A stretch of DNA of 47,232 nt, from contig CAWEJX010000013.1 in the NCBI GenBank assembly GCA_963809485.1, positions 1-47,232 on the forward strand, in the 5' to 3' direction. Under the pieces are notes generated by a model. The model saw nothing but the letters and a program-made list of their open reading frames with translations, made no database searches and was not told the origin of the DNA. The stretch's first letter is position 1, and every line of letters begins with the position of its first letter. This stretch comes from an uncultured Acidobacteriota bacterium. GTDB taxonomy: Bacteria > Acidobacteriota > UBA6911. Positions 39,844-47,232 of this stretch are shown piece by piece. A program made the position numbers and the translations under genes.

Positions 39844-39884
39844 CAAGGGGGCGGGGAGGCATTGCAGGTCTCTCCGCCCCCCTT
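39844..39884 (+). terminator. Strong GC-rich hairpin downstream of the SnoaL-like gene
   Basis: CAAGGGGGCGGGGAGGC...GTCTCTCCGCCCCCTTG inverted repeat. No U-tract, so terminator function is uncertain. Confidence 0.35.
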
Positions 39885-40140
39885 GCCCTGCAATGCACTC
39901 TGTCCGGCTGAAGCCAAAAAGGCAGTCCGGCTCCCCCATGCAATTGGGGAAACTCGTTTCCATGGAAATTTCCCAAGCCGGATATCGCCGGCAGAATCCC
40001 GGTTCCCTGCTCCAATGAATTCAGTCATTCGATCCATGAACCCCGGCCATCGCGAATCCGCTTCCGGTGAGAGTCAGGGCATATCCAGCGCTGCATGGAA
40101 ATATGGAAATCTGTCGTATATGATTTTGTATATAGGAGGA

Positions 40141-41016: not shown

Positions 41017-41414
41017 AAATTGCCCGACAACAGATTACGGTTCCCCACTGCAATCGATAGCGCATGCCGTGTCGACAGCCTCCGGCTTTGCTCTGATTGA
41101 AGCGCGCACTTGAAACTGAGAGCAAGCTCGACGGGGTTCCGGCTGAGACGCAGGGAAGATTTGCCTTTTACCATTCTTTGAGCCGTTGAACCGTCGAGGC
41201 CTTGTATGCTGCTCAAGGATCAGGTTGTTCAAGGGTAGTTCAGAACTCTGTATGAAACGCCGGCGGTGAAACCGGTCCGTGGGGTGAAGACCGGCGAAAT
41301 CGCCCATAGGCTTGAAATCAGGAAGCCCGCATATAGTCCATGCTTCTCCCATGATTCCAGCATGGACGAGAAGATCAAGAGGCCGTCGGCCAAAGGTTGT
41401 CAAAGGAGCTGAAT

Positions 41415-42113
41415 ATGAACGAGAGCGCGGATGCACGTTTCGCCCGGATCAAGTCGCACTTCGAGCAGGAGGCGCGGGTCTTCGACAAGATGTTCTTCAA
41501 GGTGATGCCCTATTACGACGAGATGATGCAGGCCGTGGTCGAGGCAATGCCGTTCGGCCGCAACGACCGCCTGAAGATTGCCGACCTGGGGTGCGGGACT
41601 GGAAACTTGAGTCTCAAGGTACTCGAGGCTTTTCCTCGGGCGCAGTTGGTCTGCGTGGACATGGCCGAAAAGATGCTCCTTGCCAGCCGCGCCAAGCTCG
41701 CCGGCTATCCGTCGGTGCAATTCCGGCAGGCCGACATCCGCACCTTCGACTACGGAACCTACGACGCTATCGTCTCGTCCATGGTCATGCATCACATCGC
41801 TCTGCGGCAAAAGCTCGCCTTTTACCGCCGGCTGCGGCGGGCGCTTTCCCGCAAAGGCGTGCTCTTCATTATCGATATCGTGCTTTCGGCCAATCCGCAT
41901 CTGCAGGAGCTGTTCATGCAGCGCTGGAAAGATCACATGGGGGCAAGCGGCATGTCTGCCAAATGGGTCGAGGAGATGATACGGCGTCACCGAAGCGAAG
42001 ACCGGCCCCGGGATTTTGAGGCCGAGTTTGATGGCCTGCGCAAGGCCGGATTCAAGGACGTGGATGTCGTCCTGAAACGGTACAATTTCGCGGTCTACGG
42101 GGGCAGGGTGTAA
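41415..42113 (+). CDS. Class I SAM-dependent methyltransferase
   Basis: IADLGCGTG motif I, VDMAEKML, YDAIVSSMVMHH. Confidence 0.9.
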   Translation: MNESADARFARIKSHFEQEARVFDKMFFKVMPYYDEMMQAVVEAMPFGRNDRLKIADLGCGTGNLSLKVLEAFPRAQLVCVDMAEKMLLASRAKLAGYPSVQFRQADIRTFDYGTYDAIVSSMVMHHIALRQKLAFYRRLRRALSRKGVLFIIDIVLSANPHLQELFMQRWKDHMGASGMSAKWVEEMIRRHRSEDRPRDFEAEFDGLRKAGFKDVDVVLKRYNFAVYGGRV

Positions 42114-43060: not shown

Positions 43061-43810
43061 GTGCCCATGATAACTCCTGCAAAAAACGATTGGAGCATCC
43101 TGGCAAAACTAGAGCTCGACAACCCGCCCGTAGGCGTAAAATATTCGTCCAAGCCTCTGCGGGGGATTCCTAAGCTGGATAAAAAGATGTCTCTCTGTGA
43201 GATGCTCAGAGCCGCTTTCGAAGGAAACTCATTCTACGCCGCTGCGAAGTATCATGCTTGTGAGGCTGGATTGCACGTATTAGGACAAAATGAGATTGCG
43301 GAACAATATCTCAGTGGCGCCTTTGGTGCAGGATTGGAGGTTTTCCGTGACAAGCGCACTGCCCGCAAACTGTATGAATACATCCCCAGGATACCGGAAG
43401 GAGCGGTGAAATATGTCGCCCTGGCTCCTCTCAGCCGAATGGCGTTTGATCCCGACCTCCTGATTATATTGGCCGATACAAGGCAAGCCGAGATATTGCT
43501 CCGGGCTGTGAGTTACGGAACCGGGGAGATGTGGCACAGCCGCTATTCGAGTGCCATCGGTTGCGCCTGGCTTTTCGCTTATCCGCACCTGAATGGAGAG
43601 ATAAACTTTATCGCCACCGGTCTAGGTTTCGGAATGAGGCGCAGGAAATTGTTTCCGGAGGGACTGCAACTCATTTCGATTCCTTGTGATCGGCTGTCCT
43701 ATATGCTGCAAACCCTGCGGGAAATGCCCTGGGTTCCTCGCCCATACCAGGCGGGAGGACCGGAGTATGTGAAGCGCCTGCGCATAAAACTTGGCTTGGA
43801 CAAGGCGTGA
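43061..43810 (+). CDS. DUF169 family protein
   Basis: PPVGVK, LCEML, HACEAG, FDPDLLII, SAIGC. Confidence 0.75.
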   Translation: MPMITPAKNDWSILAKLELDNPPVGVKYSSKPLRGIPKLDKKMSLCEMLRAAFEGNSFYAAAKYHACEAGLHVLGQNEIAEQYLSGAFGAGLEVFRDKRTARKLYEYIPRIPEGAVKYVALAPLSRMAFDPDLLIILADTRQAEILLRAVSYGTGEMWHSRYSSAIGCAWLFAYPHLNGEINFIATGLGFGMRRRKLFPEGLQLISIPCDRLSYMLQTLREMPWVPRPYQAGGPEYVKRLRIKLGLDKA

Positions 43811-43876: not shown

Positions 43877-44389
43877 ATGCTGATGCAATTGGATAAAACC
43901 CTTCTGCCAATGATAGAGGCATTCAACCAGAACCCTGATATTTGCCGATTCGTTTCATTGCTCTCGCCCACTTGACCCAAATGAATTGACCAGGGTGCCC
44001 GGGCGGTACAGAATGGAATCCTGAAACTCTTTCCCGACGCAACTCTGGACGTGCTGCTGATATGGATTCCCATGATGAGCAATGATAGCCATAAGGCTGC
44101 GCAAAAGGCAGTCGAAAAATTTAAGGACAAAAGAGTAAAGCACTTTTACGATCCACAACATCTGGCCGGCCGGGCGTTTGCTATCAGCCTCGGCCAAAGC
44201 GATAAGGTAGCTTGGGATATATATATGTTCTACCCGTGCGGGGCGCTATGGCGGGACCTGCCTCCATCGCCGAAGGCGTACATGCACCAGCTTCGCGATA
44301 GCTGGGCTGATCCGGGCTTTCTGTTCGAAAAAGAGCAGCTAACAGCAAAACTGAGCGAAACAATGAAATTGCTGTTCCCTAGCCTATAA
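43877..44389 (+). CDS. Thioredoxin-fold protein, predicted di-selenoprotein (UxxU)
   Basis: ATG 43877 (GGGAG RBS) gives ...FVSLLSPT-TGA(43973)-PK-TGA(43982)-IDQGARAVQ, in frame with ORF 44051-44389. Hairpin at 43995-44009. Confidence 0.75.
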
Positions 44390-44391
44390 GG

Positions 44392-44925
44392 GTGAATGTG
44401 GCATACAAAGAATCCATAGGGCCGATATTCCTGATGGCAGCGCTGGCCATGTTCCTGGCTGTCGCCTGTAGCCGCCGTCCTGACGTCAGTCCTGATGCTG
44501 AAAAAACAGAAACGATTCCCCAAAACCTGCCAAAGGAGAAGGAACCACAGCCCGTTTCCTTGCCCGCCAAGCGAACAGAAACCGTAGGACACAAAGTTAA
44601 ATCCGCACAAAATTCAGCGACCGATGCTTCAGCTGATAAAACACCGACGGACCCTGCGAATAACAAAATTGACTGGGGTCGCGAAGCTGCGCTCGACGAG
44701 ATCCTCGCAATGGCAAAGAGCGGCGCGATTCAACAGATTGAGTGGCATGTGATGCCGAACATCATCCGCGCCCAAACTATCGACGGCCGGATTTTCCACA
44801 TAAAGAATGAGAACAAAGGGATCGATATACGCAACACGCTTATAAAATCCGGCATTCAGGTTGGAAAGGGCGGGATCAGCTTTCGAACATTGATCTCTGA
44901 ACCTGAGACTGGCCCCGAGGGATAG
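44392..44925 (+). CDS. Hypothetical lipoprotein
   Basis: LAVAC lipobox, low-complexity linker, small C-terminal domain. Starts 2 nt after the UxxU gene. Confidence 0.65.
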   Translation: MNVAYKESIGPIFLMAALAMFLAVACSRRPDVSPDAEKTETIPQNLPKEKEPQPVSLPAKRTETVGHKVKSAQNSATDASADKTPTDPANNKIDWGREAALDEILAMAKSGAIQQIEWHVMPNIIRAQTIDGRIFHIKNENKGIDIRNTLIKSGIQVGKGGISFRTLISEPETGPEG

Positions 44926-44983
44926 TCCTGGTCCAGGACGGAAGAGCTGGAAAGCCGACGGATAAGGCGATTGGACAAATGCC

Positions 44984-45546
44984 ATGGTGACATTCTGGGT
45001 GGATGCACTATCGATATTGTTTGCTCTCGTTGCTGTAGGCTTTGCCGTCAGGAAATGGCACATCGTAAGGGATCGTCATTGGATCCTGTCAACGATAAGG
45101 GCTGCCTTGAAGGAACCAAAAGCTTGCTGCATCGGAACCCTGGCAGGCGTTTTTTATATGGCCGTATACCTGATTCCCGGCGGGAAAGGCGGCCGAATTC
45201 ATGTGTTGTTCGGGCAGCTGATATTCAACACTTCGGCGGGCAACTGTTGACCGGCCTTTCACTGGCCCTCCTGGTGACGATTTCGATGGCCTTGTTTGTT
45301 TACGGCGTGCACGTTATGGGCTTCCCAAAATCGGGGAAAAAGGGCGGGATGGGGCTTATCGGCACTTTCCTGGCGGTGTTGGCCGCTTTTTGCCCCTGAT
45401 GACTGCCAATTTTAACGGCTCTGGGCGGAGCCGCGAGCGCTTTGTTTCTGACCTATTTTTGGAATGCATTGGCTGCACTCTCCGTAGCCTTGTTGATTCT
45501 GGGCATTTTGTACACATCCAAAGCTCTAAAGGCCAGTGAAGGCTGA
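44984..45546 (+). CDS. Membrane protein, predicted di-selenoprotein (CPUU), with one frameshift near 45240
   Basis: ORF 44984-45250 joins the frame ending LAAFCP. TGA TGA (45397-45402) is followed by LPILTALGGAASALFLTYFWNALAALSVALLILGILYTSKALKASEG* (hydrophobic helices). Hairpin at 45416-45433. Confidence 0.65.
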
Positions 45547-45644
45547 CGCTGACCTACCAATTCGCCCTAGTTTGGGGCGCATCGTCAAAAGAAACGGCAG
45601 CCTGTATGAAGGCTTCAACGAATTTCAAACAAGGGGAATTCAAT

Positions 45645-47232
45645 ATGAGAAGATCGGTCATGGGGCTTATAGCAGTTTTGATAATTTTGCCGATACTATT
45701 TTGGGCTGGCAAAATGGAGGCAGCTGCAGCTTCTCAATACACGTTAACCGTTTTAAATCCTCAAGGCCCGGTCAAAAAAGGCCGGGAACTGGCTCCCCGC
45801 CTGACAACATTGAACGGCAAGAAGGTCGCCATGTGGCTGTCCGCCACTCGCGATCAGGTATACGCCGGCAAAGGCGCGGAGCTATATGATCTCCTGGAGA
45901 AGATGCTCAAGGAAAAATTTGCGGACATCCAAATCGTGCCCTACAAGGACCTGCCTATGAAGTTTGGGCCGGAAAAGGAGGTGATGGCCGCAATCGAGAA
46001 AACCAAAGCCGATGCTGTTATAGCAGCCCTGGGCGGCTGATGAGGGGGTGACATTCTCGGCGCGATGGGTTCCATCGCTATTGCTCTCGAAGAAAAAGGC
46101 ATTCCCACCGTGACTCTATATAACGAGCGTCATGAGAAACGCTTTATGGGAACGATCCTTCCCAAAGGATATATCGATTATCCGGCAATGAATTTTGAGG
46201 AATACGACACGTTTACTTCGGAAGGCATTAAGGCGCTGGCGCCTGAGGCATTCAGTTTTGTGGTAAAAGGGCTTACCACATGGAAACCTCAGCATATGAA
46301 GCTGGCGGCAGACAAATGGATTCCCCAAAGAAAACGAGTTTTCCTACACCGCCGCGAGTTATCAAGAAGGCCAGGCCCGGTTCAACATCGATTTCCTCAA
46401 AATGGGCTGGGGTGATGGATTGCCGCTGCTGCCTCCGACGCGCAGCCGGGTCGATGCCCTGTTGAAAGGCACGCCGCTGTCTGCGTCAGAACCGTAATCG
46501 GCGCATGGGGGCCTGCCAATGCTGATTTCACAGTGGAAAAAATAGCCATTGTCGCGACCATGGCCGGCGCCGAACCGGAATACATGCCCGTAATTCTTGC
46601 GGCGTTAAAGGCCATCACCTCCGCCCGATGGGATGCCTATTTCCCCGTAATGCGAGCACCGGTTCCACTGGTGCTTGTCAACGGCCCCTATGCCCGGAAG
46701 ATAGGAATCAATTCGTCTGCAAATGCTTTTTGCCGAACCCCAAGTATCACGCCAACGGCGTGATCGGGCGGGCAATCAATTTGGCCATGGCCAGCATTCC
46801 GGGCAATGGCCGAGGCATAAAGCCTTCTAACCTGGCCGGCAATCCTGCCGCATATGCCGGAATTGTCATTGCGGAAGCGGAGGATATCGCCTCGCTGGGG
46901 TGGTTGGATCCGGTCAGCGTCCAATTGGGTTATCCCGCAGGGACCAATCTGGTTACCGTTCTCGGCATTGAAGAGATGGATATGAGCGTGGCGGGAACGA
47001 TCGCCAACCTCGTGTCTTGTATCAGCCCGCACAAGGAAATATCGGCCCAGGGACCGGAAAACCTGGGATGCCCAATATGCCGGCGCGCTCGTGATAACGG
47101 AGATGCAGCGCGTGACCGACGGCTTGATGGGAAGCAAGACCAAAGCCGATATTGCCCATGAGCTCTGGGAATCCGCTCGCATTCCGATGGATAAATTCAA
47201 TAAGCTCATCCTGACAAGTGAATTTGGGGAAC
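45645..47232 (+). CDS. Secreted UGSC-(seleno)protein-like domain fused to a GWGDGLP domain; predicted tandem Sec (GGUU); several frameshifts; runs off window
   Basis: Signal peptide, LAPRLTTLNGK, DAVIAALGG-TGA-TGA(46038-46043)-GGDILGAMGSIAIALEEKGIPTV in frame. Then, across shifts, GWGDGLPLLPPT, TVEKIAI..MAGAEPEY.PVILAA, VNGP, NGVIGRA. Confidence 0.65.

Follow-up and report, generated by a model that had tools for sequence, protein, structure and literature searches.

Architecture of the operon

We analysed a 47,232-nt stretch of DNA (the window) from an uncultured Acidobacteriota bacterium of the UBA6911 lineage; the window is the entire contig CAWEJX010000013.1 (C13) of assembly GCA_963809485.1, a genome of 6.0 Mb in 21 contigs that is labelled G000 in the following. 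At its right end lies a candidate selenoprotein operon of four co-oriented genes: gene 1, a lipoprotein gene, gene 2 encoding a membrane protein, and gene 3. All motifs given here were read by translating TGA as U (selenocysteine, Sec). This yields 12 predicted Sec codons arranged as six pairs, two codons each in gene 1 and the lipoprotein gene and four each in genes 2 and 3, with the Sec residues of a pair sitting 0-2 residues apart. The original prediction for this locus had described three genes with paired TGAs in the contexts SPT-U-PK-U, FCP-U-U-LP and GG-U-U-GG, and a lipoprotein gene between the first two. All of these are present in the window; three further pairs had been missed, namely at the C-terminus of the lipoprotein, at the C-terminus of gene 2 and late in gene 3. 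Genes and pairs are located as follows (window coordinates, forward strand).

43877..44389 (+): gene 1, 170 amino acids (aa), motif SPT-U-PK-U (UxxU)
43973..43984 (+): Sec pair 1, TGA CCC AAA TGA (TGAs at 43973-75 and 43982-84), encoding U33 and U36
44392..44925 (+): lipoprotein gene as assembled, lipobox LAVAC
44898..44906 (+): Sec pair 2, TGA ACC TGA, out of frame in the window, in frame in 8/8 relatives
44984..45570 (+): gene 2, five hydrophobic segments in about 195 aa; interrupted by a frameshift near 45241 in the window but not in relatives
45397..45402 (+): Sec pair 3, TGATGA, in F-C-P-U-U-L/M-P within the fourth hydrophobic segment
45544..45552 (+): Sec pair 4, TGA CGC TGA, in the tail G-U-x-U, followed by five residues and TAG (45568-70)
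45645..47232 (+): gene 3, first ~530 of ~592-600 codons; four frameshifts; runs off the contig
46038..46043 (+): Sec pair 5, TGATGA, GG-U-U-GC in relatives, aligning to the U-G-S-C of the family
46047..46056 (+): six extra bases specific to the window, which change UUGC to UUGGDI and remove the Cys of UxxC

Conservation of the UGA pairs

In the relatives the gene order is identical, and genes 2 and 3 are free of frameshifts. Each pair is in frame in 7-9 genomes, in proteins that are 52-85% identical to those of the window, and this in-frame conservation argues that the TGA pairs did not arise by chance. We favour, with a probability of about 0.55 for the statement as a whole, the following reading: the four genes make up a true selenoprotein operon with Sec always in pairs; their products would form a relay, most likely for a soft metal(loid) or chalcogen; and the indels in the window's own copy are assembly errors. 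With 12 Sec residues, the operon appears to lie far above the bacterial norm.

Gene 1 is preceded by a GGGAGAA ribosome-binding site 8 nt upstream of its ATG. It was taken as cytoplasmic, because it has neither a signal peptide nor a hydrophobic segment. The position of the motif and the strand/helix pattern read in the sequence suggest a thioredoxin-like layout; there was no match in any Pfam or NCBIfam model. A search of 41 genomes gave some match in 18, seven of them close homologues; the unpublished genome G034 is counted among the 18 and used nowhere else. Both TGAs are kept in seven same-genus genomes including G000 (52-85% identity), and also in G133; this query did not detect gene 1 in G001. 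Homologues at the class level read SPT-U-PH-C, APS-U-SH-C or SPT-C-GH-C, and their neighbourhoods contain no consistent partner gene. The only full-length database homologue, P0032 (248 aa), has SPT-C-PL-W and an extra Cys-rich N-terminal domain, and the remaining 57 of 58 database matches are 93-138 aa long. Five of these short matches were inspected: four begin right after the pair, and P0004 starts nine residues past it.

The lipoprotein consists of a signal peptide with lipobox, a conserved C-terminal domain of ~80 aa and a UxU tail, the C-terminus being F-U-x-U-[DK]GPx(x)-stop in 8/8 relatives.

The UU pair of gene 2 is present as two TGAs in 9/9 genomes holding the gene. Its tail pair, which came to light in a crude genome-wide scan of G000 for a TGA pair plus hairpin (92 matches, nearly all in implausible frames, and no convincing further gene), is found in 8/8 sequences, with the TAG always 8 codons from the first TGA. 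Arg and Lys are abundant in the C-terminal tail and in the loops that follow segments 1 and 3, so that by the positive-inside rule the tail pair is predicted to be cytoplasmic. A contig search with the gene-2 fragment returned only the contig of the relative G006. The protein-database search with the same fragment, longer lengths included, gave no full-length Cys form, which is weak evidence.

Gene 3 bears a signal peptide, with a lipobox instead in three orthologues. In relatives it encodes 592-600 aa and has a second pair, GGH-U-x-U-A, ~25 residues from the end, i.e. beyond the end of the window's contig. The UU pair is present in 9/9 sequences and GGH-U-x-U in 7/7 sequences covering the site, and each of the six complete orthologues has four TGAs. 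The N-terminal part matches the UGSC domain of Pfam (PF24696) with 43.9 bits for the window and 53.6 and 53.1 bits for relatives, against a cut-off of 25; scores for the NCBIfam model NF041046 (24.9-34.5) stay under its cut-off of 125. Gene 3 departs from the family motif U/C-G-S-C: relatives have U-U-G-C, which retains the U of the first and the C of the fourth position, and the window reads U-U-G-G. Paralogues within the genus contain one TGA or none. Their U-G-S-C aligns residue for residue with U-U-G-C, the UU site being occupied by UGSC, CGSC or SGSC. At the second site GGW-C-x-C replaces GGH-U-x-U in three relatives, P0187, P0189 and P0191 (36-41% identity).

The C-terminal domain of gene 3 (~380 aa) has no sequence match in Pfam, NCBIfam or the PDB, and PDB sequence searches with gene 3 and with the profile A6 gave nothing at E<1. 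Its family comprises 3208 representatives at E<=0.001. Among the 69 relatives of this domain in alignment A6, one also contains the beta-chain domain of ferredoxin-thioredoxin reductase (PF02943, E=1e-16), and others are joined to a copper amine oxidase N-terminal, an fn3 or an Ig-like domain.

A large paralogous family of ~580-aa exported proteins, which combine the UGSC domain with the same C-terminal domain as gene 3, occurs throughout the genus. At least nine scored matches to this fusion were obtained in each of the 29/29 other genomes of the genus, and G000 has 69 first-look candidates (examples are C20:516337-517611, C1:75336-76541 and C12:154957-158150). Signal peptides of these paralogues are of the twin-arginine (RRxFLK) or Sec type.

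Sec machinery and decoding of the UGA codons

The genome was searched for the Sec machinery, as the original prediction had suggested, and all components sought were found: selA (564.7 bits), selB (391.3) and selD (345.5), each above its curated cut-off, and tRNA-SeC, located on C19 with aragorn. The selD gene (G000:C8:80982-81905) is itself a predicted selenoprotein gene with one in-frame TGA followed by a hairpin, whose GGC loop lies at +23.

TGA is the commonest stop codon of this genome and terminates 1549 of the 3570 stop-to-stop frames of at least 300 codons; it is therefore mainly a stop, and a reassigned genetic code was ruled out. The prevalence of TGA as a stop can be held in favour of another explanation, in which the paired TGAs are ordinary stops with separate small genes or non-coding DNA downstream, or are read through without Sec. 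Gene callers treat them as stops, and in both C-terminal tails the first TGA is followed by no more than 7-8 codons. However, elsewhere the reading frame, amino-acid conservation and third-position bias run on past the pairs for hundreds of codons; the pairs are situated within Cys-type motifs that have Cys homologues; and in the tails, where the middle codon varies, the two TGAs, the frame and the spacing to the closing TAG/TAA do not change. As Sec machinery and hairpins resembling the selenocysteine insertion sequence (SECIS) are present as well, we regard ordinary termination or Sec-free read-through as highly improbable. Judged from these patterns of conservation, the paired UGAs are very probably decoded as Sec.

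SECIS-like hairpins

A stem-loop after each TGA pair had been part of the original prediction; such hairpins were found and are conserved in the relatives. There is one per pair, six in all, with a loop that is mostly GUU and begins 18-26 nt past the second UGA.

43995..44009 (+): gene-1 hairpin, GUGCC-CGGGC-GGUAC, loop at +18 from the second UGA
44925..44939 (+): lipoprotein hairpin, GUCCUG-GUC-CAGGAC (GUU loop in relatives), beginning at the last base of the TAG, loop at +26
45416..45433 (+): gene-2 UU hairpin, CGGCUCU-GGGC-GGAGCCG, loop at +23
45563..45579 (+): gene-2 tail hairpin, CGCCCUA-GUU-UGGGGCG, containing the TAG stop, loop at +20
46062..46078 (+): gene-3 UU hairpin, GCGAUGG-GUU-CCAUCGC, loop at +22 in relatives
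Beyond the contig end, known from relatives: gene-3 UxU hairpin, GGCUCG-GUU-CGAGCC, loop at +22

The hairpins of both C-terminal tails, in the lipoprotein gene and gene 2, thus overlap the true TAG stop. Pairing in the gene-1 hairpin is complete over 7 sequences (35 of 35 cells), with one pair occurring as UA, UG or CG and another as GU or AU. Seven pairs are predicted for the lipoprotein hairpin over 8 sequences, two of which show compensatory changes (GC to AU, UA to CG). The gene-2 UU hairpin retains its seven stem pairs in 8/8 sequences, one of them varying between GC and GU. For the gene-2 tail hairpin six pairs are predicted, the inner three being present in 8/8 sequences, and the seven-pair stem of the gene-3 UU hairpin is found in 9/9 sequences (a single G-U in one). 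Constraint at synonymous sites is a clearer signal than covariation. The codons under the gene-3 UU hairpin do not differ at such sites; in gene 3 as a whole, 57 of 296 informative codons are identical across six orthologues, and the ten most codon-invariant 8-codon windows all lie just past the two pairs, four of them being 100% identical. A hairpin of the same design is found in four single-Sec UGSC paralogues of G000 (par4 to par7); its loop is small and G-rich, starts at +22 or +23, and is GUU or GUG in three cases. Rfam at gathering thresholds gave 0 matches over the window, and a scan for promoters and terminators found no more sites than in shuffled sequence. A single hairpin is likely to act as the SECIS for both UGAs of its pair.

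Distribution and annotation

The lipoprotein gene and genes 2 and 3 are present in 9/30 genomes of the genus and in 0/107 other sampled genomes of the class; the latter count sets aside, for the lipoprotein, two weak matches (28-29% identity) inside open frames of ~900 aa. The genes flanking the operon vary between genomes, and the patchy distribution would resemble that of an accessory module.

Directly upstream of gene 1 there is a DUF169 (PF02596) gene (window 43061-43810), which is also found in G006; remnants of it lie upstream of the operon in G010 and G001, and it is absent from this position in G004, G023 and G024. Genes for S-adenosylmethionine-dependent methyltransferases are found upstream of the operon in G004 (L028 8863-9780), G006 and G000 (window ~41300-42113). 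The one in G004 has weak TPMT and TehB matches, and such upstream methyltransferases are not conserved in other genomes.

Standard gene callers had been expected to fragment these genes, and they do. Among the listed database clusters similar to gene 3, 98 of 120 are pieces of 426-432 aa bounded by both TGA pairs: all 98 begin with MG, MD or MA right after UUGC, and 97 of 98 end with GGH right before UxU. The cluster ends coincide with both pairs, and the pairs are therefore widespread in metagenomes and always mis-called. This amounts to a systematic annotation error, as about a hundred public clusters of a 428-aa 'hypothetical protein' represent the middle piece of gene 3.

State of the window's own copy

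The original prediction had the frames staying open and protein-like past the TGAs. This holds for the relatives; in the window, gene 2 is interrupted by one frameshift and gene 3 by four. Comparison with G006 (91% DNA identity) shows uncompensated indels of the window's copy at 45241, 46323, 46488-92, 46732 and 47043, and in addition two in-frame indel clusters, one of three bases around the lipoprotein pair and one of six bases after the UU of gene 3. The former explains why the lipoprotein TGAs are out of frame: three extra bases (44887, 44895 and 44909) shift the frame and then restore it. Due to the latter (46047-46056), GG-U-U-GG is the correct reading for the window, but not for the relatives, which have GG-UU-GC.

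Contigs of relatives, assembled from three DNA runs and one RNA-library run, are without the window's variants wherever they cover them, and the extra base at 44887 is absent from the contigs of all 4 runs. In no public run does the share of the stretch's sampled words exceed 0.20, and the contigs compared therefore come from relatives and not from the source itself; the RNA-library contigs (X20) and uncovered parts were not taken as evidence of expression or absence.

Two explanations have to be weighed here. The window's copy could be a real, recently decayed pseudo-operon, the family being functional elsewhere. For this speaks that five uncompensated indels and two in-frame clusters are packed into 2.4 kb, that several of the indels lie outside homopolymers, and that both clusters hit key sites, removing the Sec pair of the lipoprotein and the Cys of UUGC. 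Furthermore, other loci of the same genome have intact selA and selB and no fewer than seven intact gene-3 paralogues (paralogue frames of 559-660 aa). On the other hand, the damage lies in the last 2.4 kb of the contig, and the window's variants occur in no compared contig, even from a run with pieces that are 99-100% identical. Moreover, with G010 as outgroup, the ratio of nonsynonymous to synonymous changes in gene 3 is 10/21 on the window's branch versus 8/22 on the G006 branch, and the bias towards third codon positions is retained (69 differences versus 22 and 20 at the other two positions, i.e. three times commoner). Without a nonsynonymous excess, any decay would have to be very recent. 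We thus consider a decayed pseudo-operon unlikely, and the indels are probably assembly errors near the contig end, preferred by about 2:1 over very recent decay.

Farther upstream, at 39860-40056, the window shows ten single-base indels relative to G006 with a net change of zero, which may reflect a diverged non-coding stretch or consensus noise.

Proposed function

Gene 1 is predicted to reside in the cytoplasm, gene 2 in the membrane, and the lipoprotein and gene 3 in the periplasm, each with one or two Sec pairs. Such locations would fit the trans-envelope selenol relay or soft-metal handling pathway that had been proposed at the outset. According to our proposal, the cargo, a soft metal(loid) or chalcogen (for instance Hg, Cu, As or selenium itself), would be handed on as a diselenolate chelate from gene 3 to the lipoprotein tail, then to C-P-U-U in helix 4 of gene 2, to the cytoplasmic tail of gene 2 and finally to gene 1. 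This would follow a Mer-like scheme, in which MerP is succeeded by the vicinal pair of MerT, the cytoplasmic pair of MerT and a cytoplasmic acceptor. We favour a Mer-like cargo because of the vicinal helix pair combined with a pair at the cytoplasmic face, the flexible tails, a marginal score of the window's gene-2 fragment with Pfam MerE (23.1 bits, cut-off 22.8) and the patchy distribution. Considered by itself, a soft metal(loid) or chalcogen cargo comes somewhat short of an even chance; metal or chalcogen and reducing equivalents were weighed at roughly 45:30, the remainder being left to something else.

Reducing equivalents would be the cargo if the same operon and pairs formed a very low-potential electron cascade of the DsbD/CcdA kind, leading from gene 1 via the membrane pair to the lipoprotein tail and to gene 3 as a periplasmic reductase. 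Several features are in line with this idea: the layout of gene 1 recalls the thioredoxin fold, and its homologues have UxxC or CxxC; UGSC is a UxxC motif, of which UUGC retains the U and the C; and the proline-flanked membrane pair P-U-U-L/M-P is reminiscent of P-C-x-x-P in the helices of CcdA/DsbD. A vicinal Cys-Sec centre is known from mammalian thioredoxin reductase, look-alike Atlas clusters are automatically named 'thioredoxin' or 'thiol-disulfide oxidoreductase', and the ferredoxin-thioredoxin reductase domain in 1 of the 69 A6 relatives can be counted here as well. Yet gene 2 has no Pfam DsbD_TM match, and an ordinary DsbD/CcdA gene (182 bits) is encoded elsewhere in the genome, on C20. 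Also, a vicinal helix pair together with a pair at the cytoplasmic face is the design of MerT and not of DsbD. We therefore rate an electron cascade as a rather unlikely alternative. The more specific possibility that gene 2 is the housekeeping DsbD was ruled out, the true DsbD_TM gene being the one on C20.

A number of observations weigh against the interpretation as a paired-Sec relay for soft metals or chalcogens. As assembled, the window's copy could not give rise to three of the four proteins. It had been expected that homologues carry Cys or TGA at the columns of the pairs; orthologues do keep both TGAs, and Cys occurs at three positions farther out, but no Cys form was found among the homologues searched for either pair of gene 2, for the lipoprotein pair or for the second U of the gene-3 UU, which is Gly in the paralogues. 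At the second site of the gene-1 pair, homologues from the class have Cys and P0032 has Trp. True covariation in the hairpins is thin because most stems never vary; compensated pairs number two for the lipoprotein and one for gene 1. UGA-SECIS spacing is strict in E. coli, whereas one SECIS would here have to serve two codons. The MerE similarity of gene 2 falls far below the NCBIfam cut-off (24.6 vs 80), and the full-length G006 orthologue gave no family match at E<=1, so that the marginal Pfam score was not reproduced. No merA above cut-off (best MerA-like match 345.5 bits vs 454) and no hgcA were found in the genome, neither a metal reductase nor a pump is present in the flanks examined, and merR, merP and merA are missing from the flanks of the operon. 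Finally, a redox relay would account equally well for the thioredoxin-like partner and for the UxxC of gene 3.

As a tentative and more far-reaching proposal, a relay made up entirely of Sec pairs, with four Sec residues in each of two proteins, neighbouring Sec-Sec within a membrane helix, and one SECIS per pair including those overlapping a stop, might carry a soft metal, or Se in the form of perselenide or triselenide, from one side of the envelope to the other. If true, such a relay would represent a new transport or redox principle together with a new rule for bacterial Sec decoding. If the operon as such is real, one bacterial SECIS could serve two neighbouring UGAs, which would relax the spacing rule of prediction tools, and at least three selenoprotein families that lack a curated model would be added. 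Diselenide/diselenolate chemistry would appear as a means by which metals, selenium or very low-potential electrons are brought through an envelope.

Comparison with known systems

In the mer system for Hg(II), the ion is relayed from the CxxC of MerP to a vicinal Cys-Cys pair in a helix of MerT and to its cytoplasmic Cys pair, and then to MerA. The operon described here would match this plan, with a pair at every station: a carrier on the periplasmic side, a small membrane protein whose helix holds a vicinal pair and which has another pair facing the cytoplasm, and an acceptor in the cytoplasm bearing an xxC-type pair. It differs in that all pairs are Sec, that homologues of MerR, MerA and MerP were not found, that gene 2 has five predicted helices and not three, and that an extra periplasmic selenoprotein of 600 aa is present. 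With the thioredoxin-DsbD/CcdA cascade it would share a cytoplasmic donor of thioredoxin-like layout, a proline-flanked intramembrane pair and periplasmic acceptors; unlike in DsbD/CcdA, the redox residues are adjacent in one helix rather than distributed over two, they are Sec and not Cys, and there is no DsbD_TM homology.

Eukaryotic SelL, a further UxxU selenoprotein comparable to gene 1, contains a diselenide. Adjacent or vicinal Sec residues or tandem UGAs are not mentioned in the literature surveyed on diselenide bonds. None of the four operon proteins reaches any NCBIfam cut-off, selenoprotein models included (release of June 2026). The N-terminal domain of gene 3 belongs with the UGSC family (PF24696/NF041046), its first Sec aligning to the U of UGSC, but deviates from it by the motif U-U-G-C, the fused domain of ~380 aa and the second pair, U-x-U.

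According to the available excerpts of a 2026 review of prokaryotic selenoproteins (PMC13188914), there are 119 families, almost all of which have one Sec and a small subset 2-3; UGSC proteins are listed there with one Sec, and no adjacent-Sec motif is among the motifs tabulated in these excerpts. Two proteins with four Sec residues each, as predicted here, would exceed the maximum of 2-3 in the families listed in them. The UxxU selenoproteins listed in the same excerpts are a Prx-like thiol:disulfide oxidoreductase, the metal-binding protein NF041115 and the FmdB family (PMC13188914). Gene 1 resembles them in its UxxU at the redox position of a thioredoxin-like layout, whereas, unlike these families as far as the excerpts list them, it matches no Pfam or NCBIfam model. 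C-terminal Sec tails are represented in this part of the review by the UXX-star families, and UxxU and UxxxxU motifs are listed as well (PMC13188914). Operons with several selenoprotein genes are also described there: the SAO operon has six such genes and the Tso operon three, and metal or organometallic chemistry has been proposed for them (PMC13188914). Like SAO and Tso, as presented in these excerpts, the operon in the window combines several selenoprotein genes with C-terminal Sec tails; unlike them, it has every site paired, two of the pairs being adjacent UU and two of the proteins carrying four Sec residues each.

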